Source: an uncultured Candidatus Saccharibacteria bacterium
Lineage (GTDB): Bacteria; Patescibacteriota; Minisyncoccia; Phycocordibacterales; UBA2100
Length of the DNA stretch: 64,000 nt
Reading direction: 5' to 3'
Assembly (NCBI GenBank): GCA_964462785.1
Contig: CAYWZA010000003.1
Span: 1 to 64,000 of the forward strand
Positions within the stretch are counted from its first letter, which is position 1. Each line of letters begins with the position of its first letter. Positions 393-60,252 of the stretch are shown piece after piece. The notes under the pieces are model-generated. The model ran no database searches, was not told the DNA's origin, and was given only the letters and a program-made list of their open reading frames with translations. A program made the translations under genes and the position numbers.

Positions 393-689
393 ATGTTTTT
401 TGTTGAGTTAAATTCATAAATCCGTTAGTTCTCAATTAGTTAAATAAAAAACGGCGCGCTTGTAGCGACATGAGATTTAGAATCGACCTATCTCAAGTCA
501 CTCAATCAGCTTCACCGTTAGTATCTTCTTTCGAAGTATTTTAAGTATGAGTGATTCTTTTTTTATCCGCAAATAGAGTTTTGCAACGATGGTAAATTAC
601 AAAAATGGCGACGAAATTTTTGCAGAATGCTCACCAAGAATCACCTGCAACTATCGTAAATTGGGGCTGTGGATATCTATGAAGGTTAG

Positions 690-1499: not shown

Positions 1500-1502
1500 A
1501 AA

Positions 1503-3077
1503 TTATTTTGATTTAAAATGAAAAATTATTTCGGAATATGGATTCCTGTCTCGCTCCGTTCGATTCAAAACGGGTCTTTTAAATTGATTGACAATCTTCA
1601 TCCCAGATTTTTCCGCAATTTCTGGATAGAGATTATATTTATCATTTGCTACAAGGAAAATATCATAATCATCTTTTAGATATTTCTTACAGTTATTTAG
1701 CACATCGGCTATTCCTTGAGAATATGACCTGCGTGCCTCCTGTCCTTGTCCTTTGAAAAGAGGGCCAATTTCTAAATCATCTTTTCTTTTAAATCCTAAC
1801 AAATCGTAAGCATAGGCGTGTTGTTCGTGATAATCTATTTGCCCAACATACGGAGGAGAGCAAAATATACCCGAAATTTTTTGTTTTTTCAGAATCTTTG
1901 CAAATTCATGGTTTTGTTTCTCAACTTTTTCAAAAATATCAACAAACCTTGAGTCGCCAGTAATAGCCGAATAGTGAGCTGGTTTTCGCAACCTTTCAAA
2001 TTCTTTAATTCTTGAAACCGTGTCATATGCATAGCGATTAAGCATTGTTTTTATAGAAAACAACGGCTTGCAAATCTTTTTGTGCTTATAGCAATAATAT
2101 GTAGTTAATTGTGGCTCTTTTAGGGTAGCGAGATCACTGTGTGTCGTGGCTCGGCACGATCTAATTGTTCGACTCAAAATCAGAGCCAAAATCTTTTTTG
2201 TTTTTATGTCTTTTTCTTGTTTTATAGTATTAAAAACATGATCAATTTCTTTTCTCACATTATCCATAAACCAAGTATCTAAAAATGAATCGGTTTTATC
2301 CTGTTTCAGCTTTATTGAATATTTCTTTAGTAATTTCTGGTATATAGGTAAAAACTCTTTCTCTTTTTCAGAAGAGAATATTTTCTCATTAAAATTACCT
2401 TGATTTAATTTATATTTGAAATCTGAGCCGGGAAAATGCTTATTATTAAACTTTGCGAGCTCTGCCAACAGCTCTGTTTCAAATTCTTGAATTTTATTAT
2501 CGTGCTCAAAAGTATCTATTGCCGCGAGCATTTTTTTTATCGCTTTTTGCAGATAATCGTGATCATAGTTTGTTGCTTTGCAACTTGCAATCATGCAATT
2601 AAACTCAGACACATCAATACCAACGGAATGAATACCCATTTCTAGTGCTTGAATAATTGTTGTGCCTGAACCCAGAAAAGGATCAAGAACTATATCGCCA
2701 GTTTTAAAATAAACATCCTTTTTAAAATCATCAGTATGTGAATCAATAAAATATTCGACGAGTTGAGGAATGTATTTTCCTTTATAAGGGTGAAGTCGGT
2801 GGACATGCTTCGTGGTATCTTTCTCACGTAAATTATCAAAGGAAAGCGTCCAGTTTAAATCATTCCCCAAGTTCTTTTTCCAGCTGATTTCGCGTTTCCC
2901 GTTATATGATTCGTAATATTTTTTTAGATCACCCAAATCAACCATCGTGGAGCCATTTTCACCATGTTTTTTTACCTTGCCATATTGCACGAGGTAGGAA
3001 ATATTTGTCGGTGAAACCTCCTTTTCAAGGTAATCAGTAGCCCACTTTGATGCTTCGGGTATTGATACTAGTGACAT
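1503..3077 (-). CDS. DNA methyltransferase, N6-adenine/N4-cytosine family
   Basis: Motif I DPFLGSGTT and motif IV SPPY are present in alpha-class order. Low-GC region. Confidence 0.8.
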   Translation of the reverse strand: MSLVSIPEASKWATDYLEKEVSPTNISYLVQYGKVKKHGENGSTMVDLGDLKKYYESYNGKREISWKKNLGNDLNWTLSFDNLREKDTTKHVHRLHPYKGKYIPQLVEYFIDSHTDDFKKDVYFKTGDIVLDPFLGSGTTIIQALEMGIHSVGIDVSEFNCMIASCKATNYDHDYLQKAIKKMLAAIDTFEHDNKIQEFETELLAELAKFNNKHFPGSDFKYKLNQGNFNEKIFSSEKEKEFLPIYQKLLKKYSIKLKQDKTDSFLDTWFMDNVRKEIDHVFNTIKQEKDIKTKKILALILSRTIRSCRATTHSDLATLKEPQLTTYYCYKHKKICKPLFSIKTMLNRYAYDTVSRIKEFERLRKPAHYSAITGDSRFVDIFEKVEKQNHEFAKILKKQKISGIFCSPPYVGQIDYHEQHAYAYDLLGFKRKDDLEIGPLFKGQGQEARRSYSQGIADVLNNCKKYLKDDYDIFLVANDKYNLYPEIAEKSGMKIVNQFKRPVLNRTERDRNPYSEIIFHFKSK

Positions 3078-3095
3078 AAGTTTATTTTATCAGAT

Positions 3096-3731
3096 TTATT
3101 TGACTATTGGCTTCTTAATTACCTCAACTACTTTTCCATTGACTAAAATATTGTCATCTTCGTGAACAAAAATGGGAGAATATTCTTGTGTTGACTCAGA
3201 CATTAGAAGAATTTGTGAGTTCTTGCTGTCCCAAACATATTTTTTTATGTTTGCCATATTATCAATTATAGAAACAATGTAATCGCCGTCACGGGGCACC
3301 ACAGAACCACTGTCAACAATGACAAAATCTCCTTCCTCAATATTTTTTCCATTGATAGAAGCTTTATTCAAAGAATTTCCCTCGGCTCGAAGTGCAAAGA
3401 GATGTTCCTTTTTAGGTAAAAGTTTCTTAGATATCTTTAAGTACCCCTCTATGTTTTCTTCCGCATATATTGTCCGTGGCCCACAATTAGCTGAACCCAT
3501 AATTGGTACAGATATAAACAAATTTGAACTACTTACTTTGCCACTGACCCTACTTATTAAAGCTTTGTTTTTATCGACAACAATAAAACCCTTCCGTTCA
3601 AGTTGAAAAAGATGATGCTTTATTTTTTGGGGGAGCTTCTCGTCAATAAGTGCTCCTATATCCCGTAAGGTCATGCCACCTATATTTTTTGTCTCGATCA
3701 ATCGCAAGAGTTTTTCTTGTATTGGATGCAT
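3096..3731 (-). CDS. lexA: LexA-like repressor (N-terminal wHTH plus S24 peptidase domain)
   Basis: LexA_DNA_bind-like N-terminus (HLFQLERKGFIVV). S24 motifs GNSL (Ser) and ANIKKY (Lys), with the EGDFVIVD block. Confidence 0.7.
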   Translation of the reverse strand: MHPIQEKLLRLIETKNIGGMTLRDIGALIDEKLPQKIKHHLFQLERKGFIVVDKNKALISRVSGKVSSSNLFISVPIMGSANCGPRTIYAEENIEGYLKISKKLLPKKEHLFALRAEGNSLNKASINGKNIEEGDFVIVDSGSVVPRDGDYIVSIIDNMANIKKYVWDSKNSQILLMSESTQEYSPIFVHEDDNILVNGKVVEVIKKPIVK

Positions 3732-3735
3732 AGGT

Positions 3736-3753
3736 ACAGTATACGTGTTCTGT
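3736..3753. promoter_or_regulatory. Candidate SOS-box-like palindrome ACAG-N10-CTGT just upstream of the lexA-like start
   Basis: ACAGTATACGTGTTCTGT lies 5 nt upstream of the start codon, in the divergent region between the lexA-like and GIY-YIG genes. Confidence 0.25.
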
Positions 3754-3879
3754 CAAAAGTAATCAACAAGTTGTCCACAGATATGACAGAGTTGACAGGA
3801 TATATCTGCAGGTGAGAAAATATAGGCACGTCCTCGGTGTCGACGGGCTCTTAATAATAACGGTAGTCAGAACAACTTC

Positions 3880-4170
3880 ATGGCATTCGTACAACAAGCA
3901 CCAAGACTCTTCACGAAGCAAAACATCGAGGCAATAACCCCAAACCAATACGGTGTGTACGGCATATTCAGCCAAAATCGCTGGATTTACGTTGGTAAGG
4001 GTGATATTCGCACAAGACTCCTCTCTCACCTGAATGGTGATAACCCGCTCATTCTTAGAGCTGGTCCCACACATTGGGTAGATGAGGTTTGTGCAGATCC
4101 GCAGATGAGTGTTCGTGAGAAGCAATTAATACTGGAACTACAGCCAGTCTGTAACCAGAAAGTCGGTTAA
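3880..4170 (+). CDS. GIY-YIG nuclease domain protein
   Basis: Motifs YGVYGIF...IYVGKG...R...H match the GIY/YIG/Arg/His signature. Size is typical of stand-alone GIY-YIG proteins. Confidence 0.65.
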   Translation: MAFVQQAPRLFTKQNIEAITPNQYGVYGIFSQNRWIYVGKGDIRTRLLSHLNGDNPLILRAGPTHWVDEVCADPQMSVREKQLILELQPVCNQKVG

Positions 4171-9047: not shown

Positions 9048-9076
9048 CGTTAGAGCCTGTCTAAAGTCTCGTGGTA

Positions 9077-9197
9077 CCCATCCCTGAAAAATGCAGGTTT
9101 TTGAGCGAAAAACGAGTCGGAGCACGAAGTGCAGCCCAAGCTGCATTGAGTGCGAGACGAGGTTTTGCAGCCAAAAACATAGCATTTTCAGGATGGG
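9077..9197. repeat. Long imperfect palindrome / nested hairpin element between convergent genes
   Basis: CCCATCCCTGAAAAATGC ... GCATTTTCAGGATGGG with inner hairpins. It contains the motif CGAGTCGGAGC, shared with the 39.1-kb element. Confidence 0.5.
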
Positions 9198-9220
9198 GGA
9201 AGACTTTGACAGGCTTTAGG

Positions 9221-10765
9221 TCATGGAGAACCGAGGATGGTCACGGAGGCGCTGCGGCTGCTCTGGCTTCCAGCGGGACCATATGTAAGTGTGGCGGAAT
9301 AATTTGCACTCGTCGTGTTTGTTGGGTAGGTGTGTGTGAGCGTTTGACGATCGACGGTTGCCGCGCAACCGCTTCCCTGTGCGCGCGATGCAGGTGTTGA
9401 TCCATCGCCCCAGTTGAATGTGAATGCGGTACACGCATCCGCCAGATCAAACGTTGCGCGCACGCGCTGGAATACGCCATCATACCCAGGAGTTAACACC
9501 AAATTGGGATTTACCGCGGAGCTCGTGGGTGATGAAGCAACAACATTTACACTCGCAGCGGGCGCAGTACTGCCGACACTCGCCGACGGCACCGCATAGA
9601 GGCGCACGGTATACGCACCGGCAGTGGTATATCGATGCGTCAGTGTCGAAGTAATGGCGGTACAAGCATTTGCCGGATAGGTGAGCGGCGCACGCTGACC
9701 ATCACCAAAATCAATCGTATACTCACCGCCTGTGCATGCGTTTCGGCTGTTGATGCGTGTCGTAAATACCACATCAAACGGCACGACACCACTTGCGGGA
9801 TGTGCGCTTACCGAGTCGGAGAGCGCGCTGCTGGTATTCGACTCGGTGTACGTAACACCGCCGACAGAACACGTGCGCGGAGTTGCGTTCGACACCACAC
9901 CGCCCGATGCAACGCATGCGGCAAAGCCGCTGGTCGGCTGCGTGGAGGATGGGTTGGATGAGCCGCTCAATACAGTAATGATGCTCGTTGTGTAGCTGGC
10001 ACCCACGCGCAGTGAGACAGTGTATGTTCCTGGATTGGCGTATACGTGAGGCACTACCTGCTCAAGCTCGGCACAGCGCCCCGCGGGGACTATGAGCGAC
10101 AGCGGTGCGGACCCGTCACCAAAATCAAGTGCGTAGGAACCATATTCACACGATCGAATGGTGTTTACTTTCGCAGTGATCATTGCGGTAAGCGGCGCAG
10201 CGCCAGTCGTTTTATTTACCCGCAATGAGCCACCCACAGATCCCGTTGTCGGTGCAGAGCCGCACCCATTCAAAAGTGCCAGTCGTGTCTTGGGGCCGAT
10301 GCGCCCATACCCCGATGACGCATAATCGCCTGCCGAGACAATTCCGCACGCAATTTGGAATTTTTGTACTGCTGCTTCGGTGAGTGGGCCATAGAAACCC
10401 GTACTCTGACCGTTCGGATATATTGAGGCATCGCGCGCAAGGAAAATCTGGAGCTTCGTCACATCAGCACCACTATCGCCTCGCCCGATATCGCGATCCA
10501 GCTGAAGCCCGCCCGTAAGAACGCTGCCTGTGGTCGCAATAACTGTGTTTGGCGCGGGGGTAGTAGTTGTGTAGGTAGGTGTGGATGCGGATGTTGCCGG
10601 AAGCTGATCGAGCTGCACACGCAGCGCAGCGAGTCGCGCGAGCAAAGCATTCACTTGTGCTTGCAGCTCATCGAGGGTTTGCGCATGCGCAAACATCGGG
10701 GTGCTTATTGAAAAAATTGCAGCAATAGCAAACAACACTCCCACCACTCTTACTGAAACCGCCAT
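9221..10765 (-). CDS. Secreted protein with a peptidoglycan-binding domain and PKD-like repeats
   Basis: Signal peptide, PG_binding_1-like segment (DVTKLQIFLARD...GPLTEAAVQKFQ) and repeated DFGDG-containing PKD-like modules. Confidence 0.55.
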   Translation of the reverse strand: MAVSVRVVGVLFAIAAIFSISTPMFAHAQTLDELQAQVNALLARLAALRVQLDQLPATSASTPTYTTTTPAPNTVIATTGSVLTGGLQLDRDIGRGDSGADVTKLQIFLARDASIYPNGQSTGFYGPLTEAAVQKFQIACGIVSAGDYASSGYGRIGPKTRLALLNGCGSAPTTGSVGGSLRVNKTTGAAPLTAMITAKVNTIRSCEYGSYALDFGDGSAPLSLIVPAGRCAELEQVVPHVYANPGTYTVSLRVGASYTTSIITVLSGSSNPSSTQPTSGFAACVASGGVVSNATPRTCSVGGVTYTESNTSSALSDSVSAHPASGVVPFDVVFTTRINSRNACTGGEYTIDFGDGQRAPLTYPANACTAITSTLTHRYTTAGAYTVRLYAVPSASVGSTAPAASVNVVASSPTSSAVNPNLVLTPGYDGVFQRVRATFDLADACTAFTFNWGDGSTPASRAQGSGCAATVDRQTLTHTYPTNTTSANYSATLTYGPAGSQSSRSASVTILGSP

Positions 10766-14759: not shown

Positions 14760-15197
14760 ATGGTGTTGATAAGAAATAAAAAGGCACATCTGGAGTATGC
14801 TTTTCTTGAGAAATTCGAGGCGGGTTTGGAATTGCTGGGGCTTGAGGTGAAATCACTGCGTGCCGGCAGGGGCAATTTGGAGGGTGCGCGCGTCGTTGCG
14901 CGCGGCGGCGAAGCGTATTTGGTGGGAGCAACTATTCCCCCATATCAGGCAGGAAATACGCCAAAAGAGTACGATCCTGAGCGCACGCGGCGGCTATTGC
15001 TCTCAAAGCAAGAGATCGCGCAGGTGGCTTCCGCTGAGGGCGCAGAGGGCTTGACAGTAGTGCCTATTGCGGTGTATAATAAAGGGAGGAATTTAAAGCT
15101 TGAAGTCGCCATCGCGCGCGGCAAAAAGAAGTATGATAAAAGGCAGGATTTGAAGAAGCGCGACGAAGAGCGGCGTTTCAAGCGGAAAGAATTTTGA
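14760..15197 (+). CDS. smpB: SsrA-binding protein SmpB
   Basis: SmpB-like sequence (KKAHLEYAFLEKFEAGLELLGLEVKSLRAG...). True start is an internal ATG of the listed ORF. ssrA lies downstream. Confidence 0.85.
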   Translation: MVLIRNKKAHLEYAFLEKFEAGLELLGLEVKSLRAGRGNLEGARVVARGGEAYLVGATIPPYQAGNTPKEYDPERTRRLLLSKQEIAQVASAEGAEGLTVVPIAVYNKGRNLKLEVAIARGKKKYDKRQDLKKRDEERRFKRKEF

Positions 15198-15203
15198 AAA
15201 TTA

Positions 15204-15426
15204 ATTGTGAGTTGTGATGGGTCAACCATGGAGAAGATGGCTGGAGTTCCTGTTTATTCTCGGTGTTTTTGCGCTTGGATTTGGCGCAGGTATGATCCAC
15301 GGATTTAATCGTGGATACGACGAGGGTTTAATTGACGGAAAAGCTTCTATCAAACGAAACCCTACGTAGACCCCAGCACGAGCGCTGCTTAACCGCAACG
15401 CTCGCGCCCCCATCACAACTCACAAT
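15204..15426. repeat. Mini-cassette bounded by perfect 18-bp terminal inverted repeats (ATTGTGAGTTGTGATGGG / CCCATCACAACTCACAAT)
   Basis: Perfect inverted repeats seen directly. The left arm begins 7 nt after the smpB stop. Confidence 0.6.
15217..15369 (+). CDS. 50-aa hydrophobic small ORF inside the IR cassette (MGQPWRRWLEFLFILGVFALGFGAGMIHGF...)
   Basis: Manual translation: one predicted TM helix, start within the left IR. Below the ORF-track size cutoff. Confidence 0.3.
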   Translation: MGQPWRRWLEFLFILGVFALGFGAGMIHGFNRGYDEGLIDGKASIKRNPT

Positions 15427-15437
15427 CACAGTACAAA

Positions 15438-15460
15438 ATATCAAGGTTAAACCTTGATAT
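15438..15460. promoter_or_regulatory. Perfect 11-bp-arm palindrome ATATCAAGGTT-A-AACCTTGATAT
   Basis: Seen directly; between the IR cassette and ssrA. Could be an operator or a hairpin. Confidence 0.4.
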
Positions 15461-15915
15461 TAACGAGTGCTTGAGTGTGGCACTGAACTTTTATCACAAG
15501 GATGCCCACGCATGGGCAAAAAAACAGACTCACTAAAACAGTATCGGGAGTACCTTAACTCCCACAACGATCAGCTCGAGAGTTTCGAGCAATTGCATAT
15601 CGAGGCACGCGCAACCGCGCATTGCCGAGGGTCGCCTGAGCCAGAGATCGGTAGGGATGAGCTCTACTACCAAGGAGAGCTCGAATTCACCGATGGTCCC
15701 AGTGGTCCACTCACGCGGGCTTTTCGTTGACACTTCGGTGGGGAGAGCCACAACTCCCCGCCACACTTAAGCACTCGTTATGATGACGAAGGTCCGACCT
15801 TCGTCAGAAAAGCACAGCCAGTCCCCGTGAGATATTAAACATTCAGCAGAGTACACAATTCAGTAATTCAGTTACGAAAGCGACTCGGTAGCAGAAACGA
15901 TTTTGGTATCTCACG

Positions 15916-16302
15916 GGGGGTGACTTGGCTTCGACATTGAGTTACGTGTTTTGAAGTGCATGACAGAAGTGAGCGTCTTCTTAAAAAAGCTCAAAACCTA
16001 AGTGCAAATAAAACAGCACGGGGGATTCTTTCACCTATTCAGATGAAAGATCTCGGCTTCGTTTACGCTACGGCCTAAGCGACCGTGTGCCTGTCTGACA
16101 TCCGATGAGATAGAGCGCACGTCATACACTTCGGATCCGACTTTCTTGCGCACCAAAGAAAGTTTAAAGAAAGAGTGCTCGGCATTGTAGGATCTTGTGT
16201 GTTCCCTACCTACAGCGCTTAAACAAAACATGAACGCACTACGTCATGTAGACAGTTCCTAACATTCCTCTTTGGACTCGGGTTCAATTCCCGACACTTC
16301 CA
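15916..16302 (+). ncRNA. ssrA: tmRNA (ssrA)
   Basis: 5' end GGGGGUGACUUGGCUUCGAC parallels E. coli GGGGCUGAUUCUGGAUUCGAC. 3' tRNA-like end GGACUCGGGUUCAAUUCCCGACACUUCCAC-A with a G3-U70 pair. Candidate resume codon GCA at nt 89 (16004) in the context UAAAAAAGCUCAAAACCUAAGU-GCA. Adjacent smpB. Confidence 0.8.
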
Positions 16303-16304
16303 CA

Positions 16305-16352
16305 GGTAAAACAAAAACGCTGCACTCATTAGTGCAGCGTTTTTGTTTTACC
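16305..16352. terminator. 22-bp perfect palindrome (GGTAAAACAAAAACGCTGCACT-catt-AGTGCAGCGTTTTTGTTTTACC) directly 3' of ssrA
   Basis: Seen directly. Likely a bidirectional terminator. The stop codon of the LAGLIDADG gene lies in the loop. Confidence 0.6.
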
Positions 16353-16781
16353 TGGCTTGATTTGAAGAAACCTTTCTGCAAATTTCAAACGTTGCTTGAG
16401 TAAAGTTGGCGAATATTTGCCATTGCGGGGTGTTAGCGCAACATAACGATTGAGCGCGAACGTAGCCCTTCCCTTTTTATATCCGCGCAAGAAAGGTGTG
16501 ATTTGTCGAAGTACATCCAGGGCTTGTCTGCTGTAAATTTGATATGCAAAGGAAGGTGAGTGCTTATCTTTTGATCTGGTCTTTCTGGTGATTTTTCCCA
16601 CTCCAATGACACGACGTGCGTGTTCCAATAAACCATATTCAGTACTACTGATCGTTACAGCGAGATGCCGTTGGGCATTCTTCTGTTTATAAGTAAGAGT
16701 GATTGTGCCCTCACCATCAACCAACCCCGCCAGATATGCGGCGTCTGTTGTGCTCATATTTTTTGCGATTTTCTTACTCAT
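16329..16781 (-). CDS. LAGLIDADG homing endonuclease (single-motif, free-standing)
   Basis: LAGLVDGEG motif near the N-terminus; 150 aa is typical of homodimeric LAGLIDADG enzymes. Confidence 0.85.
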   Translation of the reverse strand: MSKKIAKNMSTTDAAYLAGLVDGEGTITLTYKQKNAQRHLAVTISSTEYGLLEHARRVIGVGKITRKTRSKDKHSPSFAYQIYSRQALDVLRQITPFLRGYKKGRATFALNRYVALTPRNGKYSPTLLKQRLKFAERFLQIKPGKTKTLH

Positions 16782-39095: not shown

Positions 39096-39131
39096 ATAAA
39101 AACGATAATCTAATAGGTATTTGCACTATAC

Positions 39132-39330
39132 CATACGTATACACCCCCGCACTCTTGCGGGGGTGCAGAGCTTGTTTCGAAACCTGGGTTCCCAAACCGA
39201 GCGGCGTGTGTTCGTCGCCGAGAACCCGAGTCGGAGCCCTCAATGTGCTGGCGGCACATTGAGGGCGAGACTCGTGGTTCACAGGCAGAACACACGCCGC
39301 GTAGGTAGGGAGGGGTTTCGAAACATGCTC
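39132..39330. repeat. Nested perfect-palindrome element (10-, 16/17-, 12- and 13-bp stems)
   Basis: CACCCCCGCA/TGCGGGGGTG; GAGCTTGTTTCGAAACC/GGTTTCGAAACATGCTC; CGGCGTGTGTTC/GAACACACGCCG; GCCCTCAATGTGC/GCACATTGAGGGC. Contains CGAGTCGGAGC. Confidence 0.6.
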
Positions 39331-39356
39331 TGAACCTGTTTCATGCTAAGACCGCT

Positions 39357-51008: not shown

Positions 51009-51145
51009 ATTGTGCGTGACATCCCACCATCTTAAGTGTGTCTTGAAAATCGATGCAATGCGCGAAGCGGACGAGCACCGAGCCGAGCCGTATTGAATAT
51101 ACGGTGAGGGAGGCGCGGAGTCCGCGACAAAGCAGTGCGCGATTT

Positions 51146-52132
51146 TCAAGACACACTATCCATACGATAGCGGTGCAGCATATAGGCGGCGCCAAATCCT
51201 GCGATGAAGAGCAGCACAAGAAACGGGATAAGTGCTGAGGCGACTCCTGCAATGGACGCAAGCGCGGCGGCTGCTCCTTCGGCACGAATATCAAATTTGA
51301 TGCGTTTGGACGGCTCACTTTCCACGCCACTTGCGTCAACTGCCTGCGCCCAGAGGCGGTAGACGCCCGTCTCAAGATCCATATCAGAGACAAACGTGAA
51401 CGATCCGTCTGCCGCGCTCGTCACGCGTGTCAACACTTTCGGCTCATCGCCCCGTGCGAGCCAGATGTGGATGGCTGCGTCGGGAATCGCTGTCCCACGG
51501 ACTATCACGCGTTCTCCAAGCGGGACCGTCCCAAATGGATACTCCACGAGTGCCGGGGCTGGCGGAAGTGCCGGCTGATCAATTGACGCCCCCAGGACCT
51601 GCCCCTCTTCCACTATCTCTTCTTCAGGTAGTGCTGCAATGACTTGTTTCGGCTCTATGCCATAGATACCTGAGCGCATTGCGGTGATGATATTCGACCC
51701 CTTGCCGTCTGCAGAGAGCAGCGCACCGGAGGTGAGGCGTGCGGTGCTCAACGTGGTTCGTAATGCACGGAACGTGATCGTCGCCAAGAGTCCGTCAGTA
51801 CCGGCATACTTGCTATTCGTCCAACCGGAGAATCGGATCGTGCCTTCTTCATTTGAAAATTTAGGCGGCGTAGGCCAGAGCGAGAGAATCGAGCCGTATG
51901 TCGATACGTCTTCGACAACGAGCTCGTTAGGATCGAATAGGATCTCGGCTTCGGCTGCATTGATCGCAGTATCGCCCGTATCGGCGAGCACCTGCACATC
52001 AAAAAAATCGCCCACCGCGTACGTCCCGCGCTCGGGTGACACGTAAAGAACCGCATCTGCCGCAGCTACAAACGGGAGCGACACACATAACGCGCTGAGA
52101 AAAAATGAGACGCGAACGACGGACCGGTTCAT
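51146..52132 (-). CDS. Cohesin-like domain protein with a C-terminal TM anchor
   Basis: Signal peptide, a cohesin-like region (...ILFDPNELVV...GLLATITFRAL...) and a C-terminal TM helix. Confidence 0.5.
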   Translation of the reverse strand: MNRSVVRVSFFLSALCVSLPFVAAADAVLYVSPERGTYAVGDFFDVQVLADTGDTAINAAEAEILFDPNELVVEDVSTYGSILSLWPTPPKFSNEEGTIRFSGWTNSKYAGTDGLLATITFRALRTTLSTARLTSGALLSADGKGSNIITAMRSGIYGIEPKQVIAALPEEEIVEEGQVLGASIDQPALPPAPALVEYPFGTVPLGERVIVRGTAIPDAAIHIWLARGDEPKVLTRVTSAADGSFTFVSDMDLETGVYRLWAQAVDASGVESEPSKRIKFDIRAEGAAAALASIAGVASALIPFLVLLFIAGFGAAYMLHRYRMDSVS

Positions 52133-53073
52133 GGTGTGGGCGGGTTCTCAACATGTGCAGCGCGCCTATGAAGACCCATACCAATAATGACCAAAAATAC
52201 CAGTAGCACAGCAACGAATGGCGCAAAATCCCAGAGTGTCCATTGACGCGGCGGCGCAGAGCCTTCTTTGTATATCCCCAACCGCTCATTCCCCGCCTTA
52301 TCTATCGCGCGAATGCGAATGTCGGAGAGTGTCTGATCGCGCAGCGCATACGGGCTCGTGATGGTTTTCCATGCGCCGTTTTCACGTATTTCAAAGTGAT
52401 CAATGCCACTTTGCTTATCCTGAGTTGCAAATACCGCATAGTAGCGACCGCTGAAAATGCCGCGCGTCGATTGCACTTCGATTTCAAACGCATCGGGTGA
52501 TGTCTCATCAGACTGCACCTCCGCTATCCAAGGATTCTCCGGCACCGTCGGCTGCGCGGTGGTCATGATGGTGGCACTTCCCGTCTTGATGGCAGCCTGC
52601 GTGCCCAAGCCGTCGTTTACGTATGCGCGTGACGCGTCGGTAATCACAATAGGGGCACTGTGAGCGTCGTCAATGACCATGAAAATGATTCTGCCGAGCG
52701 TGTTGCTGAGTGCAGGATCCCCGTGAATACGTCCGCAGTAGCCTCCCGGCACTCCGCCCGCAAAGGAAACAATTCCTTTTTCTATATCGATCTTCGGCTC
52801 CTCCGCCCACAGGGTGAGGATTGAATTGCCGCGGCTGAAATCCACTGCCTTGAGTACGTCGACGGGATACTGCACCGATACTTGCATCGCATTCAAACAC
52901 TCTTCTTCGTTATCAATACGCACACTCATGATGAAGGTATCCCCCACCCCATAGAGCGCCTCGGATGGATCAAGATACAGATACGCGGCGTGCGCAGAAA
53001 ACGGCGCGAACAATAACACGCATAGGAAAAAACTTCTGGCAAACCACTGCATGTTATTAGTATACATTGTCAT
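52129..53073 (-). CDS. Cohesin-like domain protein with a C-terminal TM anchor (paralog)
   Basis: Signal peptide, a cohesin-like region (...VSVQYPVDVLKAV...GRIIFMVI...) and a C-terminal TM helix. Confidence 0.5.
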   Translation of the reverse strand: MTMYTNNMQWFARSFFLCVLLFAPFSAHAAYLYLDPSEALYGVGDTFIMSVRIDNEEECLNAMQVSVQYPVDVLKAVDFSRGNSILTLWAEEPKIDIEKGIVSFAGGVPGGYCGRIHGDPALSNTLGRIIFMVIDDAHSAPIVITDASRAYVNDGLGTQAAIKTGSATIMTTAQPTVPENPWIAEVQSDETSPDAFEIEVQSTRGIFSGRYYAVFATQDKQSGIDHFEIRENGAWKTITSPYALRDQTLSDIRIRAIDKAGNERLGIYKEGSAPPRQWTLWDFAPFVAVLLVFLVIIGMGLHRRAAHVENPPTP

Positions 53074-53078
53074 ACGCT

Positions 53079-54206
53079 CTAGCCGGTCCAGTTAAAGAGG
53101 AGTATGGAGAAGTCTGCCAAATTCACTGTCCCATCAAGATTAAAGTCATGTTTGATATCCTTACCCCCCCAACTCAAAAGAAAGATCGAGAAGTCCACGA
53201 GATTGACGCGCTTGTCGCCATTCACATCGGCAGAGGAAGCACCTCCGGAGGCAACTCCGTCCCCGATAGTAAAGCTGACCGAGCGTCCGAATCCGCTCTT
53301 CACCGTATCACTCAACTCGAAGAGGGCTTTTGCGGAGTGCGCGCCCGCTGAAAGTGTGGATGTATCGAGACGAAGCGCCCATTTTCCCGAACCGTCCGCT
53401 TGTGCGTTGAGTATCGCCTCAGCTTGCGGGTTTATCTGCGCTTCTATACCTGCGTTTGGCACTGCATATCCCGACACGGTGAGATCATCACCAGGAGCAA
53501 CGGTACGACTGCTCACCGCGGTGGTGGGTGGAAGAAAAATATTTGCGACGGTGGTAACAGCGCTTTGTACAACCTCGAATACCACCGAGTTGATTGTCGA
53601 ATCCGCCCCCGCCGGATCTTTGGCCCACACGCCAAACGTCGCCGTCCCCGGCGTAATATCAGTCGTACTGAAAATAAAATCTGCCTGCGCATCCGCCTTT
53701 GCAGTCCCTTTGAGTTTTCCATCGAGCAGAATGTTGACGGTGCTGTTAGGATACGCCTTGCCGCGCAAAACTACCTTCGTCGCTATCTCAGAGAGGATGG
53801 AGCCGAGCGGCGCACCGGGCACAAACGGTGTGCTCCCCACCGCGGGTGCCCCACCACCACCTGGCGGCACCGGAGTGAGCGGCGTGCACATCACATCGCA
53901 CAGATCCCCTGCTTCATTGTCGCCATCGTCGCATTGCTCGCCAAATCGCACTTGCAACGTGCTGTCGCCGCAGTACGGACCCCAGCTGATACAATCTGCA
54001 GCGCAGATGCGACCTGTTGTCGACGAAGCATACGAGCCGACGTTGTTGCCTGTCCCTAAATCACATATCTCTGTGCCCGTCACCAAACCGTCACCGCATA
54101 CCGCAACGGTCACGAATGGTCGCATCGCAATTGCCTCGACGCGACCGGTGCTATTCCCAATGGCGATCAGTGAAAGCGCTATGAGAATGGACGCGATAAT
54201 CTGCAT
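53079..54206 (-). CDS. Secreted Cys-rich-repeat protein with a C-terminal dockerin-like domain
   Basis: Signal peptide, CGDGxVTGTEICD / CGDSTLQVRFGEQCDDGD Cys-rich repeats, a Pro/Gly linker, and C-terminal DVNGDKRVNLVDFSIFL...DFNLDGTVNLADFSILL. Confidence 0.55.
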   Translation of the reverse strand: MQIIASILIALSLIAIGNSTGRVEAIAMRPFVTVAVCGDGLVTGTEICDLGTGNNVGSYASSTTGRICAADCISWGPYCGDSTLQVRFGEQCDDGDNEAGDLCDVMCTPLTPVPPGGGGAPAVGSTPFVPGAPLGSILSEIATKVVLRGKAYPNSTVNILLDGKLKGTAKADAQADFIFSTTDITPGTATFGVWAKDPAGADSTINSVVFEVVQSAVTTVANIFLPPTTAVSSRTVAPGDDLTVSGYAVPNAGIEAQINPQAEAILNAQADGSGKWALRLDTSTLSAGAHSAKALFELSDTVKSGFGRSVSFTIGDGVASGGASSADVNGDKRVNLVDFSIFLLSWGGKDIKHDFNLDGTVNLADFSILLFNWTG

Positions 54207-54228
54207 GAAGGTATGTACATGAGTGGCG

Positions 54229-55239
54229 TTATAGAAGCTGCGTCGTCTTTGGGTAAACTCGCATGCGAGCGCGCCTACGCCTGCGCACGACCACAGCGCC
54301 GCCCATAGTGCCGACGAGCGCGACCGGCATACCCAGATAGCTCAGTGCTTTCAATTTGTCTTGGAGCGACAGACCGGAGAATCCATACCCCTCGTAGCCG
54401 GCAACAGTGCCCAGAGGATTGATACTCACGGTGATTTGGTTCTGCTGGGCGATCTCATCGCCTCTGTAGATGGTGTATTTCGCTGCGTATCGCCCCGGAG
54501 GGAGGCGGGTCGGCAATTCGGCTATCACTTCTTTTGTGCCGAAGGGCGAAATCCGCTCGATATCATTTGTATTTTCGATGGACTCAAGGAGTGTCTCCAT
54601 TTCGCTGTCATACATATCAAAGGTCACCTTGCTGGGACCATATTCCGTGTTGCCGGTGTTCTCAATTGTCATGAGGAACTTGATTTTCCCGGGGAAGAAG
54701 AGGCCCCAACGCGTACGCCCCTCTTCCAAGTCAAGCACGCCTATTTTGCGCACGCTGAAATCATAGATTTTGTCGACAACGGTCACATCCACATCGATCT
54801 GTGCGCCGAGTGCGATCGATACGCCGCCTGATGGTTGCGGCGAATTGGGTGATGTGCGGACACGAATCGCACCTTTGTATTGCTTATATTCGGCGTCATC
54901 GGGCACGCGCACGGTGACCACCATAGAGATCTGCGACGCACCCTTAGGGATGATAAATTCGCGCCCGCGATCAATAGAGAACCAGCTTTCGATGCCGGGG
55001 ATGTTCATCGTAACCTCCACCTTGAGATCCTCATTCGGATCGGAGCGCACCAAGCCGATGCGCTGCTCGTATACAGTACCGCGCGTGAGACGATCATTGA
55101 AAACATATGGCGGCGTGATGCCGAAACCAGCGTCCGCGACGGGCGCGAATGTGAAAAAAGCCGCTGCAGTGGCAATACCAAATAAAAAATGCCCGTACAA
55201 AATCCTCGTTCTCTCTGTGTTGTTAAGTAAAAATTGCAT
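54229..55239 (-). CDS. DUF916/DUF3324-like cell-surface protein, paralog D
   Basis: Signal peptide, two beta-sandwich-like regions, C-terminal TM plus an Arg-rich tail. Confidence 0.45.
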   Translation of the reverse strand: MQFLLNNTERTRILYGHFLFGIATAAAFFTFAPVADAGFGITPPYVFNDRLTRGTVYEQRIGLVRSDPNEDLKVEVTMNIPGIESWFSIDRGREFIIPKGASQISMVVTVRVPDDAEYKQYKGAIRVRTSPNSPQPSGGVSIALGAQIDVDVTVVDKIYDFSVRKIGVLDLEEGRTRWGLFFPGKIKFLMTIENTGNTEYGPSKVTFDMYDSEMETLLESIENTNDIERISPFGTKEVIAELPTRLPPGRYAAKYTIYRGDEIAQQNQITVSINPLGTVAGYEGYGFSGLSLQDKLKALSYLGMPVALVGTMGGAVVVRRRRRARMRVYPKTTQLL

Positions 55240-55304
55240 ATGCCATGCGGGTAGATTGTATTGTGTCTACTACCCTTTCCATTACGATTCCCACACTCAT
55301 CAGA

Positions 55305-57248
55305 TTACCAGAATGATGAGTTGCTTTTCTTTCCCGTAATGGTGTTTTGTCCGGTGTAGCTGCCGGCAAGCGTGATGGCACTCGGGATGTTGATACCCCA
55401 ATAGTTGTATTTCGTCTGCGGAGAGCTGGTGGAGGTTGTTTTCGGCACGCGAATTTCAAACGATAGTGGCGAGGTGGAGGCGGTAATGGAATATGCCTCG
55501 GCATGGGAGTATGCGACTGATGTGGTAGCAACCTTCTGATTGGAGATCGGGATTTCGCGTGTGGAATCAATACCCCCTGCATCGCACGAATCCGCTACGG
55601 TCCAGTCCGTACACATGGTGTCGCCGTAAATATCTTCATCGAGGCCGACGTTACCCTGCGCGATCAGATCAGACGTGGTGGAAACGGCGAGCTGCTGCCC
55701 CGGCTCCAAGCTGCCGTAGAGAACCGAAGTGCTGGAGACATTGAACGCAAGGAAACTTTCGACGTCTCTGCTGTCGTCGGTGGTATCTGCCGTGAGTGTA
55801 CTCGAAGCGGCGTTGTCATCCTGAATACGCACCGATGCTTCCCATCGCTCGGATGTCCATGGAGTGGAGGCGTCTGTCGGATCGGCAATATACCAGAGCG
55901 GGAATGTACACTCCCAATCCACTGTGGGATCGGAGGCGCCACTGCATGCGCCGGAGCCCGTAGTCGTCGCAGCACAGGTCATGCCCGAGGGAAAACCGGT
56001 AAATAGTGTCGAAGTAGCTGCGTAGCAGTTGTTGGCATTGTATTCAGATGCCGTATCGCATCCGGTTTGCCCAACACCACTGCGATACACGGCGGTCACT
56101 GCAAAGGTCGTCTCGGCGCCGCCTGAGGAATTGAGGCAGCTGTTGTTGTCGGTCGCGGTGAAATGGACACGATACGGGCCCGAGGTGGAGACGGCTTGCC
56201 AGAGCGTGAGGCTGCCACCGGGGACGGGGTTGCTGCTGCTGTAGCTGTCGATAAGGGTGATCGTTGATCCATCAACAGCCGGAGCGACGTTATTGACGGA
56301 GAAGGTTGAATTGGAGCCGTAAATGGTCGATGTCGCCACTAGCCCGTGGCTGTCTATCATATACACGTATGCATTGTAGGATTTATCCTGAAGCGGAGTG
56401 GTGAGTGTGGTCGTTGTCGCTGCGTTTGAGGCAGCGAACGTGGACGTCGCCCATGAGCCACCCGCGCCGCAATAGGTTCCGTTGAAGTCGTTTGATTTAC
56501 AGACGAATAACTGCACCGTATCTGGCGTGCCTGTCGCGTCATTATCATACGCTGTGGATGTCCATGTGACCGTGCCACCCGGATCCTCCGGTCCGTCGTT
56601 AACGACGGCGGAAAATACCGGCGGGTGGTTCATCACGAATGGCGAGAATCTGCCATACGTCGATCTCCCCTGCTTCATTGCTCCGTTGCATCGCGCAAGC
56701 GACGCGTTTGCGTCGCACACATACGCGTACCATGCGTTGCCCTCTTGATCGAATGGAAAATATTCAATAGTGGATGTCGATGCTGTGGCATCTGAAGCGC
56801 TCGTAGTTGTTGCCGAGCGTGCCCAGCGATTTGATACACCACCGCCACACTCAGGTGGTGCATTTGAAGTCGCGGTCGGGGTGCTGCTTGCTTTGCAAAT
56901 CAATAAGAAATAATCGTCGTTGTTGGAATCAGTCGCACGTGCAGTCCATGAGATCGTGGCCCCTGCGTTCGTGGGAGTTGAGGTGGATGACTCTGCGGTT
57001 TCCTCTGCGTCGAGCGTCCATTGCGGCGGTGTGTTGAGCACGGTGACAGAGGTCGATACGTCGTCCGCGCGTGCTTCCGGCACACGCACTTCGAACATCA
57101 CGAAAAATATGAGCGCGGCAAGCGCAGTGGTGCCGAGCACGGTGGCAACGGCAATTTTTCCTGAATTGAAATGTGCATCGGAAAAATCTTCTGTGTCAAA
57201 AAATGAGAGCCGTGCGCGCATAGCAAAAAAGACTTCCCTCAATCTCAT
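55305..57248 (-). CDS. Large Thr/Ser-rich surface protein with repeated Ig/cadherin-like modules (adhesin-like)
   Basis: N-terminal TM/signal anchor. Repeated module starts NTPPQWT / NHPPVFS / NNVAPAV. Confidence 0.5.
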   Translation of the reverse strand: MRLREVFFAMRARLSFFDTEDFSDAHFNSGKIAVATVLGTTALAALIFFVMFEVRVPEARADDVSTSVTVLNTPPQWTLDAEETAESSTSTPTNAGATISWTARATDSNNDDYFLLICKASSTPTATSNAPPECGGGVSNRWARSATTTSASDATASTSTIEYFPFDQEGNAWYAYVCDANASLARCNGAMKQGRSTYGRFSPFVMNHPPVFSAVVNDGPEDPGGTVTWTSTAYDNDATGTPDTVQLFVCKSNDFNGTYCGAGGSWATSTFAASNAATTTTLTTPLQDKSYNAYVYMIDSHGLVATSTIYGSNSTFSVNNVAPAVDGSTITLIDSYSSSNPVPGGSLTLWQAVSTSGPYRVHFTATDNNSCLNSSGGAETTFAVTAVYRSGVGQTGCDTASEYNANNCYAATSTLFTGFPSGMTCAATTTGSGACSGASDPTVDWECTFPLWYIADPTDASTPWTSERWEASVRIQDDNAASSTLTADTTDDSRDVESFLAFNVSSTSVLYGSLEPGQQLAVSTTSDLIAQGNVGLDEDIYGDTMCTDWTVADSCDAGGIDSTREIPISNQKVATTSVAYSHAEAYSITASTSPLSFEIRVPKTTSTSSPQTKYNYWGINIPSAITLAGSYTGQNTITGKKSNSSFW

Positions 57249-57319
57249 ACAGTAAATAGTACCATTGAGCCGATTTTTCAGTTTTCAACACGTGTTGATA
57301 AGTGCTTCGCTCGGGTGTC

Positions 57320-57652
57320 CGCACACCTCTATCGGGGTACGAGTCTCGCCCCAGCGGGGCTCGCTCTGAAGTCTCGGCGCGCGGCCGCCTCTTTCAGGGC
57401 GGACCGTGCCCGCGCACCTGCGAACCCCCCGATAGAGGTGTGCGAACCCCCTCGCTCCGTTCGCCGGAAAGCGAGGGGCGCCCGCATGTATTTTTGAGGA
57501 TTGCGAAAGCGGGCTAGAGATACAAGGTGACGGAGCAGAAAAACTCAACCGTCCAAGCCGGAGGGCGCGTTTTGCGTTTTTCGTCGCGGAGGTGCCTATG
57601 TATCTCAGTACGCGAAGCATTCTCCTCAAAAATGCATGCGGGCGAACCGAGC
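57320..57652. ncRNA. Candidate structured RNA: two domains closed by long-range helices of 17-18 bp and 19 bp (one G-U), plus an outer 12-bp helix
   Basis: GCACACCTCTATCGGGG(57320-57336) pairs with CCCCGATAGAGGTGTGC(57426-57442). CCGCATGTATTTTTGAGGA(57481-57499) pairs with TCCTCAAAAATGCATGCGG(57622-57640). CGCTCCGTTCGC(57452-57463) pairs with GCGAACCGAGCG(57641-57652). Family unassigned. Confidence 0.4.
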
Positions 57653-57656
57653 GACA

Positions 57657-58865
57657 CTATTTGTATCTAATGGCGTCTAGGGGGTTGATTTTAGCGGCGC
57701 GGCGCGCAGGAAAGAGACCGGTGAGAAAGCCAACCCCCGCAGAGAATACTGCAATGAAAGTGATGAATGATAGCGGATATCTGAACAGGCTCACTGCTTC
57801 ACCACCGAAATTGCCTGCGGCAACGGCAAGCAATCCGTTGAGTATCACCCCGATGCCAACCCCGATACCGATACCGACAACACCTCCGAGGAATCCCACA
57901 ATAAGTGCTTCGGAAACGAACAGGATGACGATATCGCGTGACGACGCGCCGATGGTACGCATGACGCCGATTTCCGCAGTACGTTCAAGAAGTGTCACCG
58001 TCATTGTGTTGAACATGCCGATTGCAGAGACGGTAAGCGCGATCCCACCAAAGACCGCGAGCACCGCTTGAATGCCTTGGAAAATTTTGTTTGCTTGCTC
58101 GACTGTTTTTGAAAGCGCGGTCACGACGAATCCCTGTGCGATGATGCTATCTTGCACCGGTACTAATGAGTCGCTATCGAGGACGCGCACCTGCACGCGC
58201 TCATAAAATGGAATCTGGAAGTATGTCGAAAATTCATCGAGCGGAATGATGGATACGAGCGACGCCTCGTCGCTGGTCACCGCTTTAATTTTATATTCTT
58301 TATTGATCGGCACTTCAGTGACATCTTCGCTCCCCTCTTGCTTTACGAACACCCGAAACGTGATGCGTTTACCAATTGCATCTTCGGGATTTTCCAATCC
58401 AAAGAGTTTGAGCATCGCGATGGAGATAATTGCGGTGTCGCGATCTTCGAATGCAGTGTCAATCGAGAATAATTCCCCCGCCGATGCCTTGCCTCCAGTG
58501 TAGAGAAAGTAGGAAGGCTTCATGCCCTGCAGCGTGGTGTTGCCGGTGAGTCCTTCAAACGTCACTAAGGCGGGAAAACTTGCCATAGGCGAGATATCTT
58601 TCACCAACTCATTTGCAGCTATGGCGTCCACGGTCGCCTGGTCAAGCTTCACCGTAAGCGACGGCGGGTTTGCCACATTCAAGCTGAGGAGTGTCTCACC
58701 AAAGACGATGCGCTCAAGGATGATCCCTTGCAAACCAAAGCCCAAACCCACCAACGTGACCACCGCGCCCGTGCCGACGCCCATGCCCAAAATCGTGAGC
58801 CAAGTACGCGACGGGTTTGTCTTAAACATGCGCGTCGAGAGCATCAAAATATCCTTCATTTGCAT
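57657..58865 (-). CDS. ABC transporter permease, FtsX/MacB-like
   Basis: N-terminal TM, large extracytoplasmic domain and three C-terminal TM helices with the FtsX-like pattern. Confidence 0.75.
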   Translation of the reverse strand: MQMKDILMLSTRMFKTNPSRTWLTILGMGVGTGAVVTLVGLGFGLQGIILERIVFGETLLSLNVANPPSLTVKLDQATVDAIAANELVKDISPMASFPALVTFEGLTGNTTLQGMKPSYFLYTGGKASAGELFSIDTAFEDRDTAIISIAMLKLFGLENPEDAIGKRITFRVFVKQEGSEDVTEVPINKEYKIKAVTSDEASLVSIIPLDEFSTYFQIPFYERVQVRVLDSDSLVPVQDSIIAQGFVVTALSKTVEQANKIFQGIQAVLAVFGGIALTVSAIGMFNTMTVTLLERTAEIGVMRTIGASSRDIVILFVSEALIVGFLGGVVGIGIGVGIGVILNGLLAVAAGNFGGEAVSLFRYPLSFITFIAVFSAGVGFLTGLFPARRAAKINPLDAIRYK

Positions 58866-58871
58866 ACTGTT

Positions 58872-60218
58872 TTACGAATGAGCGCCCAAGAGTTCGTTAG
58901 GCTTAATGACATATCCTCCCTGCGCAATTAATTTCTCAAGATATCGGGAAATGAGGTACGCCTTATCGGTATCGAACGCCATGCCGCCCAAATGGAGCGG
59001 GAGTGAGAGCCGCCTTTCAAAATCGTCCCCCGTGATGATGCCGCCGACGCGCTCAGCAACGCTCTCCTGCAAGACCTTAAGCTGATCCGCGGATGCATGT
59101 AATTCAATTTCCCCTTTGATATACGTTAAAACGCTTTCAATAAATTTCTGTTGATGCAGAAACATATCGTCGTGGTGCATTTCCTCGCGAAACTTTGCGA
59201 CATCGCGCGAGTAATTCACCAACGTAAAAAGATTTTTTGCGATGCGACTCACCTCTTCCGCATGCATACCCACTCCCCCGTTCACGATAGGTTTCAACAA
59301 ATATTCTGCAAACATCTCCTCATCCATAGTGCCTTTGATAACTTCAAGCACTGCTTTTTCGAGCCGCTCGATTTGCGTGAAGCCAATACTCTGCGTCGCA
59401 AAGTTCACCAAACTTTTCACTTTGAGTTCAATCGGCTCGGCATAGGGATAGAGACGTGCGAGCTGTTCAATCTCAGTAACGATGGTCTCGCCGGGCTTTA
59501 CGCGTTTGATCTGCGGCTTTTCCGGATTCACCACAATGCGACGCAACACCCCATCGCGCATATAAAAGACGCGGTGTGCATACGGCAAATATTTGGCATC
59601 GTGCGTGACGAGAATCACCGTCTTTCTATCTTTCTCGTTAATCTCCTCGAAACTGTCCATAACGTGCTCGGCGGAGATACTGTCGAGGTTTCCCACCGGC
59701 TCATCAGCAAGCAAAATCTCGGGGTCGTTCACCAACGCGCGCGCCACGGCGACGCGCTGCTGCTGCCCACCGGACATGAGGATGGGAAGCTTCTTTTCGA
59801 GCATGTCATTGATGCCAAAACGCCGCAGCAATACCCGCGCGCGATCATTACGCTCCGCAACGGTTTTGTTCAAAAACACCATGGGGAGCGCCACGTTGTC
59901 GAGCACGGTGATTGAGGAAATGAGGTTGAACTGCTGGTACACGATGCCGATAGTGGTTTGCTGGTAGGCGTTCATTTCTGCGGGCGTATAGCGATAAATA
60001 TCTTCGCCGCGCACCAGCATGCGCCCATCCGCAGGCGGCACACCACCAAGAATCGTATAGAGCAGTGTCGATTTCCCACAGCCTGAGGGACCGAACAGAA
60101 TAATGTATTCGCGCGGATAAATTTCTACATTGATATTCTTGAGTGCATTGAATTCATTCGCCAAACCCTTGTTGTAGGTGATGAACATTTTATCCGTCTG
60201 CACTGATGTCTTCGACAT
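58872..60218 (-). CDS. ABC transporter ATP-binding protein (MacB-type) with a ~220-aa C-terminal extension
   Basis: Walker A GPSGCGKSTLL, signature LSGGQQQRVAVARAL, Walker B LLADEP. Start at an internal Met. Confidence 0.8.
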   Translation of the reverse strand: MSKTSVQTDKMFITYNKGLANEFNALKNINVEIYPREYIILFGPSGCGKSTLLYTILGGVPPADGRMLVRGEDIYRYTPAEMNAYQQTTIGIVYQQFNLISSITVLDNVALPMVFLNKTVAERNDRARVLLRRFGINDMLEKKLPILMSGGQQQRVAVARALVNDPEILLADEPVGNLDSISAEHVMDSFEEINEKDRKTVILVTHDAKYLPYAHRVFYMRDGVLRRIVVNPEKPQIKRVKPGETIVTEIEQLARLYPYAEPIELKVKSLVNFATQSIGFTQIERLEKAVLEVIKGTMDEEMFAEYLLKPIVNGGVGMHAEEVSRIAKNLFTLVNYSRDVAKFREEMHHDDMFLHQQKFIESVLTYIKGEIELHASADQLKVLQESVAERVGGIITGDDFERRLSLPLHLGGMAFDTDKAYLISRYLEKLIAQGGYVIKPNELLGAHS

Positions 60219-60252
60219 ACATACAGTGTAGCAAACCAAATGCTCTGCATGA

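Follow-up and report, generated by a model that had tools for sequence, protein, structure and literature searches.

The window, which is the whole 64-kb stretch of DNA that was analysed, contains a 408-nt gap (57249–57656) that separates two genes of the minus strand and holds four inverted repeats. On one side of the gap lies the gene for an FtsX/MacB-type ABC permease (57657–58865, minus strand), whose C-terminal R-Y-K-stop is conserved in relatives and whose TAG stop codon occupies 57657–57659. On the other side lies the gene for a 647-aa protein (55305–57248, minus strand). Both genes are part of a cluster (52129–60239) that is conserved in at least 80 Paceibacteria species and encodes an ABC ATPase, the MacB/FtsX-type permease, and proteins of 647, 336, 375, 314, and 328 aa. 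The 375-aa protein gives weak matches to DUF4215, Big_6, and dockerin, a counterpart of the 328-aa protein in one relative (L084) matches Pfam Cohesin, and some relatives carry an fn3/PhoD-like protein upstream. A hydrophobic stretch at the N-terminus of the 647-aa protein suggests a membrane helix; Pfam and PDB sequence searches returned no relative of this protein and gave no support to the adhesin label that an earlier reading of the locus, made from the letters alone (the sequence-only reading), had attached to it. Elsewhere in the window, positions 1–4000 have a GC content of 0.37 compared to about 0.53 for the rest, and encode a TdeIII-type restriction endonuclease, an N6/N4 DNA methylase, and an S24 (LexA-like) peptidase; this region looks like an acquired restriction-modification island.

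The inverted repeats of the gap form one composite palindromic unit of 348 nt (57307–57654), to which no strand is assigned. The repeats and the minimum free energy (MFE) folds describe it as a four-way junction, made up of a closing helix P1 and three hairpins (A, B, and C), with hardly any unpaired bases at the junction. The unit begins 2 nt downstream of the permease stop codon, and an extra AGTG/CACT pairing seen in the fold widens it to 57301–57658. Helix P1 pairs 57307–57314 (TCGCTCGG) with 57647–57654 (CCGAGCGA), 8 nt with 100% complementarity, and is present in the MFE structures. Hairpin A (57313–57451, 139 nt) has arms of 25 nt at 57313–57337 and 57427–57451, which are 92% complementary and 89 nt apart, and encloses sub-hairpins at about 57340–63, 57375–412, and 57413–22. 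Hairpin B (57448–57478, 31 nt) connects A with C through a 9-bp stem, CCCCTCGCT/AGCGAGGGG, in which 57448–57456 and 57470–57478 are 100% complementary over 9 nt. Hairpin C (57479–57644) is a rod of 166 nt with arms of 22 nt (57479–57500 and 57623–57644; 95% complementary, 122 nt apart), and it is the module that is kept in the second copy of the element described below. Its apex (57534–57590, plus strand) consists of an A-tract, a short GC hairpin, and a T-tract (GAAAAAC...CGTCCAAGCCGGAGGGCG CGTTTTGCGTTTTTC). A terminus that is conserved in the family lies at 57304–57324 on the plus strand (GCTTCGCTC-GGGTGTCCGCAC), and this 21-mer is found again with two differences at 567–587 of the second locus (L182). 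The terminus contains GCTTCGCTCRGGTGTCCGCAC, and the core of C reads GACGAAAAACGCAAAACGCGCCC. A direct hexamer, TCGCTC, stands on both sides of hairpin A (57307–12 and 57452–57) and may be mere junction-helix sequence.

Folding of the 408-nt intergenic region gave an MFE of –216.9 kcal/mol on the plus strand (z = –12.2) and of –200.4 kcal/mol on the minus strand (z = –7.8), and on both strands none of the shuffled sequences was as good. Hairpin A alone folds with –92.0 kcal/mol (z = –8.9) on the plus strand and –90.1 kcal/mol (z = –6.8) on the minus strand, and hairpin B alone reaches z values of –3.5 and –3.9. The GC content has its maximum, 0.68, in 57300–57499, compared to about 0.53 for the whole window. 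These results, with the four inverted repeats, confirmed that the structured, GC-rich, non-coding stretch proposed by the sequence-only reading is real and far above chance. Its borders, which had been set at 57320–57652, needed correction to the limits given above. One wobble had been reported in one helix and a single mismatch in another; helix C indeed carries one T.G wobble on the plus strand (57489/57634), which becomes an A.C mismatch on the minus strand, whereas helix A contains two mismatches (57316 and 57319) instead of one.

Within the 64-kb window, each of the long arms was found only as its own pair, and blastn, nhmmer, and a covariance model of module C detected no second copy of the element there. 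In the Logan assembly of the same organism (SRR12113430), two sequences end inside the element, one at 57361 (L001) and the other at 57611 (L181), leaving 57362–57610 unlinked. These breaks could reflect a repeat, strain variation, or a drop in coverage at the GC-rich hairpins.

The promoter of the 647-aa gene sits between the element and the ATG. An extended –10 (TGGTACTAT, 57256–57264, minus strand) lies 7 nt upstream of the ATG at 57248, and a box resembling TTATCCACA lies about 31 nt further upstream. The local form of this conserved box, TTATCAACA (57293–57301, minus strand), is 5 nt outside the unit and within a perfect palindrome, TCAACACGTGTTGA. The exact TTATCCACA is found in the spacers of 23 of 78 relatives, including nearly all of the close ones, in which it precedes the ATG by 42–53 nt; the relatives' extended –10, TG[GCT]TAC[GCT]AT, follows about 30 nt downstream of the box and 6–14 nt before the ATG. 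As the –10 is so close to the start codon, the mRNA would be leaderless or carry a very short leader. The sequence-only reading had assigned the element to the 5′ region of the 647-aa gene. In terms of transcripts this does not hold, as the element lies upstream of the promoter of that gene and directly 3′ of the permease stop. By its sequence, the box appears to be DnaA-box-like. It is embedded in a palindrome both in the window and in the locus of the closest relative of the 647-aa protein (L082; TTATCAACAC/GTGTTGAAAA), and it is not a general promoter motif in the window, where 22 near-matches compared to 11.6 expected were counted, few of them upstream of genes. A replication origin or terminus at the element was considered and rejected, as the skew does not switch and the genes to both sides have the same orientation.

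Searches for known RNA families were negative. Rfam 15 gave no match to the window element either at the gathering score or at E ≤ 10, except for a meaningless HCV_X3 (E = 7.4); the sequence-only reading had seen no conserved motifs of RNase P, SRP, 6S, or the c-di-GMP riboswitch. When both copies were compared with the 4227 models, the window element at gathering and permissive thresholds and the second copy at the permissive threshold only, no family matched, RNase P, SRP, 6S, tmRNA, riboswitches, ROOL, GOLLD, and HEARO included, and the best E values were 0.15 or worse and belonged to unrelated families. Pfam found no match in four ORFs inside the element. An ORF of 114 aa that runs across the element (57285–57629, minus strand), also without a Pfam match, had one match among 1.8 billion representative proteins, a 180-aa protein (P0242) with 59% identity, and a protein search with the alignment of the ORF returned P0242 only. 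The frame of the element ORFs is not conserved past the DNA that is common to both copies, and P0242 and the window ORF are spurious ORFs over copies of the element. Two other coding candidates were discarded: a small protein starting from GGAGG-ATG at 57587–57599, whose frame is not kept in L182, and a 2157-aa tandem-repeat protein (P0241) that had appeared as a relative of the ORF through a spurious summed match. A metagenome scan with the junction 17-mer TGTG(N)GGACACCCGAGCG gave 90 matches, all of them chance 17–20-mers with no cluster genes nearby. Viral contigs scanned with both arms and two core patterns yielded nothing or chance 15-mers only, blastn against plasmids and phages found nothing relevant, and neither did a literature search combining CPR with MITEs, inverted repeats, or structured RNA.

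Comparison with syntenic relatives indicates how the element came to lie in this gap. Among species-representative genomes, all relatives of the permease are Patescibacteria of the Paceibacteria/Parcubacteria group and are at most 79% identical, and the order of the genes for the ABC ATPase, the permease, and the 647-, 336-, and 375-aa proteins is kept in about 80 Paceibacteria species. The window protein itself was found only in one NCBI contig and in Logan run SRR12113430, and the next relative of the 647-aa protein is 62% identical. The spacer from the permease stop to the ATG has a median length of 96 nt in 78 syntenic loci compared to 408 nt here. It measures 50–161 nt in the 16 closest relatives, 62–78 nt in three further relatives from Logan, and about 130 nt in a JGI relative whose permease is 82% identical. 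Without 57307–57654, the spacer of the window would be 60 nt long, within the limits seen in the 16 closest relatives. Searches with blastn, nhmmer, and the module-C covariance model, run on about 1 Mb of DNA from about 80 relatives, did not find the element. By this comparison, the element is a lineage-specific insertion.

The short stretch between the permease stop and the promoter box often holds a small hairpin in relatives. In L082, which has the closest 647-aa relative (62%), the promoter and the adjoining proximal terminus of the unit (GTGTG-GGACACCCGAGCG) are shared with the window, CCGCTCGGGTGTCCACAC being found at the place orthologous to the terminus at 57304–57324. The rest of the 242 nt available upstream in L082 is unrelated and unstructured (z = 0.0). 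In L179, which has the closest permease relative (90%), a different three-way hairpin of 128 nt follows right after the stop (1394–1521, z = –5.9) and has about 50 nt in common with L082 and nothing with the window. Four distant relatives (L035, L061, L052, and L064) have structured spacers of 203–509 nt, with z of about –7 to –10 on the better strand. Because these spacers differ so much, the spacer between the permease and 647-aa genes is, judging from the sequences, a spot where hairpin DNA comes and goes. In four other loci (L028, L029, L040, and L043; about 9090–9360), the strongest folding outlier is found in the spacer that directly follows the 647-aa homolog, before the next gene, so a habit of long hairpins at 3′ ends is not confined to this genome; the sliding-window MFE scan of relatives is too coarse for comparing hairpin frequency between genomes.

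A second copy of the element was found at an unrelated locus. The ORF of P0242 lies on an NCBI contig of 1647 nt (locus L182, GCA_040384045.1), in which the copy (566–1051, 486 nt) fills the space between two convergent stop codons. One of the flanking genes encodes a membrane protein of 156 aa and the other a C-terminal membrane fragment; for neither does the window contain a homolog. Window positions 57470–57651, which include rod C, are 85.8% identical with L182 642–823 over 183 nt, and the L182 copy folds into a closed junction of the same type (z = –11.7). When the window is read on its minus strand and L182 on its plus strand, the modules follow in the same order: the closing helix, hairpin X, C, B, and an A-type hairpin. 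Hairpin X is extra in L182, the counterpart of hairpin B lies at 816–848, and the interior of the A-type hairpin is unrelated between the copies. The termini are conserved in both (GCTTCGCTC-RGGTGTCCGCAC): the left terminus of L182, GCTTCGCTCAGGTGTCCGCAC, matches window 57304–24 (GCTTCGCTCGGGTGTCCGCAC), and the right ends are alike as well (CCGAAGCGGC in L182 and CCGAGCGAC in the window). At both loci, the unit starts 2–4 nt after a TAG stop codon.

The two copies differ in a manner that preserves pairing. Rod C contains five compensatory pairs (CG/UA, AU/GC, AU/GC, GC/CG, and GC/AU), the whole structure contains seven compared to 0–1 in slid controls, and all 70 of the 70 consensus pairs are kept in both copies. 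Several further changes in C pass via G.U, and the one-sided ones do so via G.U on the plus strand of the window. In view of these compensatory changes, pairing has been maintained and does not follow by chance from the GC content. In the apex of C there are three differences in 59 columns compared to 21 in 114 elsewhere in the rod, or about 95% versus about 82% identity. The family is known from these two members only, in different assemblies, and nhmmer and covariance model R1 found no further member in the window or in about 1 Mb of sequence from the loci of relatives. The sequence-only reading had named a lack of conservation or covariation in relatives as evidence against its RNA candidate, and this is largely what was seen, the orthologous spacers of about 80 relatives having no such element. 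A copy with compensatory pairs exists at L182.

In sequence, the apex of C resembles a bidirectional intrinsic terminator. A terminator-like site lies at 57550–57567 on the plus strand of the window, with an equivalent at 744–727 on the minus strand of L182; however, sites fitting the terminator consensus are no more frequent than in shuffled sequence, and the consensus is fitted on one strand only. A consensus scan of the minus strand, on which the permease is transcribed, found no site, and on this strand the large helices are not followed by a U-run and only a weak hairpin forms at the apex. The plus strand folds about 16–20 kcal/mol better than the minus strand, and the alignment folds differ in the same way between strands (–89 versus –69 kcal/mol); the G.U counts, 11 versus 6, are not decisive. 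Relative to the two neighbouring genes of the window, this more stable strand is antisense, and no promoter-like site was found for it there. The evidence on the strand therefore conflicts, with thermodynamics pointing to the plus strand of the window and gene context to the minus strand, as both units start 2–4 nt after a TAG on that strand.

Long hairpins are also present in other intergenic regions of the window. One lies at 9048–9220 between the convergent genes for RecG and a PKD protein (z about –10). Another, at 39096–39356, has nested arms of 23 and 24 nt (z about –14) and is located after a stop codon and before a TGGTATAGT –10. These two share GTCTCGC.CTCAATG...GCTCCGACTCG, with a Smith-Waterman score of 29 compared to a shuffle maximum of 23. 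Three long inverted repeats (15150–15915, z about –13) lie upstream of the tmRNA gene (15916–16305), and an 18-nt perfect repeat lies between convergent genes at 51035–51157. A perfect 24-bp hairpin with a 4-nt loop (16303–16354) starts at the 3′ end of the tmRNA gene and is probably its terminator; it draws spurious weak matches to microRNA families in Rfam. Kinship of the element with the other long hairpins was considered and is not significant, a common 13-mer, ACGAGTCTCGCCC, being within chance. It seems that palindromes of unusual length are tolerated, or put to use, at terminator positions in this genome.

Our preferred reading, which we hold with about even confidence, is that the element is a new low-copy dispersed palindromic unit of the MITE, REP/BIME, ERIC, or Correia kind, situated at a terminator position. 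This reading is based on its conserved inverted termini, its non-coding nature, its presence at two unrelated loci and absence from orthologous sites, its mosaic modules, and its long near-perfect arms that fold on both strands. It is also favoured by the terminator-like apex shared by the two copies, by the small hairpins of relatives at the same spot, and by the long hairpins at other terminator positions of the window. Terminal inverted repeats as in a MITE are present (TCGCTCGG/CCGAGCGA with further imperfect complementarity), and both termini are found in L182; with 348 and 486 nt, both copies are small (under about 600 bp) and non-coding. The sequence-only reading had set a degenerate MITE against its candidate RNA, and with its terminal inverted repeats, lack of coding capacity, and second copy at an unrelated locus, the element largely answers to that description. 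No convincing target-site duplication was found for the whole unit, which is flanked in neither copy by a direct repeat, the flanks being inverted instead (AGT...ACT and TAGC...GCTA), and no transposase or recombinase gene adjoins either copy. As with REP/BIME, both copies are extragenic at gene 3′ ends, and the modules of 139 and 166 nt differ from the high-copy REP/BIME units of 20–40 nt. Points against this reading are a family of two known members, no second copy within the 64-kb window, and the missing U-run on the strand transcribed with the permease. A transposase would, moreover, be expected to conserve the ends, whereas conservation in C is higher at its centre than at the base of the stem; the termini of the whole unit are, however, also conserved.

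Under this palindromic-element reading, the whole unit would have arrived by transposition or recombination and taken the place of the short terminator-like hairpin of relatives, between the permease stop and a self-contained leaderless promoter. It would then be transcribed as the 3′ end of the ABC-operon mRNA, and its rod-like hairpins may, in the manner of REP/BIME and Correia elements, end or insulate the ABC transcript and shield its 3′ end. The hairpins could also serve as a substrate of RNase III.

The wobble and the mismatch had been taken earlier as arguing for structure at the level of RNA and not for a DNA palindrome. The compensatory pairs in C lend weight to that argument, but near-perfect Watson-Crick arms of 22–25 bp that fold on both strands are a feature more of DNA palindromes than of RNA helices shaped by evolution. 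Selection on a single-stranded molecule would explain the compensatory changes and the more stable fold of one strand just as well, and two members cannot separate selection on RNA from constraint on foldback DNA. The main rival is a functional structured RNA of an undescribed class, acting in cis at a 3′ end as a terminator, processing, or stability module or standing alone as an RNA of about 350–490 nt, with its fold selected and the whole duplicated or moved; we entertain it tentatively. Such an RNA would account for five compensatory pairs in C obtained from just two sequences with all pairs kept, one-sided changes that use G.U on the plus strand, the more stable fold of that strand, the higher identity of the C apex, a four-way architecture retained at two unrelated loci, and the location of both units within 2–4 nt of a TAG stop. 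It fits poorly with the absence of the element from about 80 syntenic relatives and with the sister lineage, in which one terminus only is kept, L082 being unstructured and L179 having another hairpin. It is also at odds with the near-perfect helices folding on both strands, the unconserved interior of module A, a favoured strand that is antisense to both neighbours without a promoter-like site, and a family of two members with nothing in Rfam. The more specific proposal of an undescribed large Paceibacteria RNA, a cloverleaf of 350–490 nt with the C apex as its functional core that is located at transcript 3′ ends or free and spreads between loci, is rather doubtful. Strand asymmetry that tolerates G.T, as for a single-strand substrate, together with conserved termini, an otherwise palindromic design, and dispersal at two loci, would also suit folded single-stranded or cruciform DNA, namely a recombinase or transposase site (such as IS200/IS605 ends, integron attC, or CTX-type attP) or a protein-binding cruciform. 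We consider this unlikely, as no recombinase, integrase, or TnpA/TnpB-like gene is next to either copy, the units are far longer than known attC or IS200 end hairpins, and there is no array or cassette context.

Growth in place is less probable still. In that case, purely local mutation by inverted duplication or template switching would have lengthened an ancestral terminator hairpin that was never mobile, a course suggested by the small hairpin at the same spot in relatives, by the structured expanded spacers that L035, L061, L052, and L064 carry independently, by the different hairpin at the same spot in the sister lineage (L179), and by unrelated long hairpins in several other intergenic regions of the window. 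For modules C and B and the termini, this course is contradicted by the copy at an unrelated locus, which is 86% identical and agrees in termini and module order; for the interior of module A it is conceivable. We give very little credence to a riboswitch-like 5′-UTR leader that regulates the 647-aa gene, even though the element is strongly structured and lies upstream of that gene on the same side. With the conserved promoter (box and TGGTACTAT) between the element and the start codon, the element is outside the 647-aa mRNA, barring read-through from the ABC operon; moreover, orthologous genes in about 80 relatives have no element, at L182, where the copy is enclosed by two convergent 3′ ends, there is no gene downstream that it could regulate, and no riboswitch family matches.

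The small genomes of Patescibacteria/CPR are thought to contain little mobile DNA, and to our knowledge almost nothing is known about non-coding elements, promoters, and terminators in CPR. A dispersed palindromic unit at terminator positions, if confirmed, would be among the first cases of REP/MITE-like DNA in this group and would also mark how CPR operons are insulated. If the RNA reading held instead, the element would represent a new class of large structured RNA with covariation support. In either case, a conserved promoter design, consisting of the DnaA-box-like TTATCCACA, an extended –10, and a leaderless start, appears to front a widely conserved surface-protein cluster.

REP/BIME (REPIN) sequences of Enterobacteria and Pseudomonas are, like the element, extragenic palindromes at gene 3′ ends and between convergent genes, and are composite mosaics of hairpin modules. 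They are transcribed as hairpins at mRNA 3′ ends, where they stabilise the upstream mRNA or terminate transcription. However, REP units are 20–40 nt long, present in hundreds of copies, and mobilised by RAYT, whereas the modules of the element are 140–170 nt long and known in two copies across all the data searched, with no RAYT-like gene seen. The Correia elements of Neisseria, the enterobacterial ERIC/IRU, and the pneumococcal BOX/RUP share with it a non-coding length of 100–300 nt, terminal inverted repeats, and long hairpins, and the modular boxA-B-C of BOX is comparable to its A-B-C order. Repeats of the Correia/ERIC/BOX type are intergenic and co-transcribed and can carry terminators, promoters, or RNase III sites. 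A genome carries tens to hundreds of copies of such a family, with defined target duplications (TA for Correia), while the element is low-copy so far and without a clear target duplication, and it forms a closed four-way junction in contrast to their single hairpin. Large RNAs such as ROOL, GOLLD, OLE, and raiA are, like the element, several hundred nucleotides long, multi-stemmed, and intergenic, show compensatory changes, and come from uncultured or little-studied lineages; they have many members, conserved unpaired nucleotides, and irregular helices, compared to two members and long near-perfect palindromes here. Finally, the element is similar to bidirectional Rho-independent terminators in its position, after stop codons and between convergent genes in L182, and in the A-tract, GC hairpin, and T-tract of its apex. 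Unlike plain terminators, it carries this terminator-like core at the tip of a rod of about 80 bp within a 350-nt junction.
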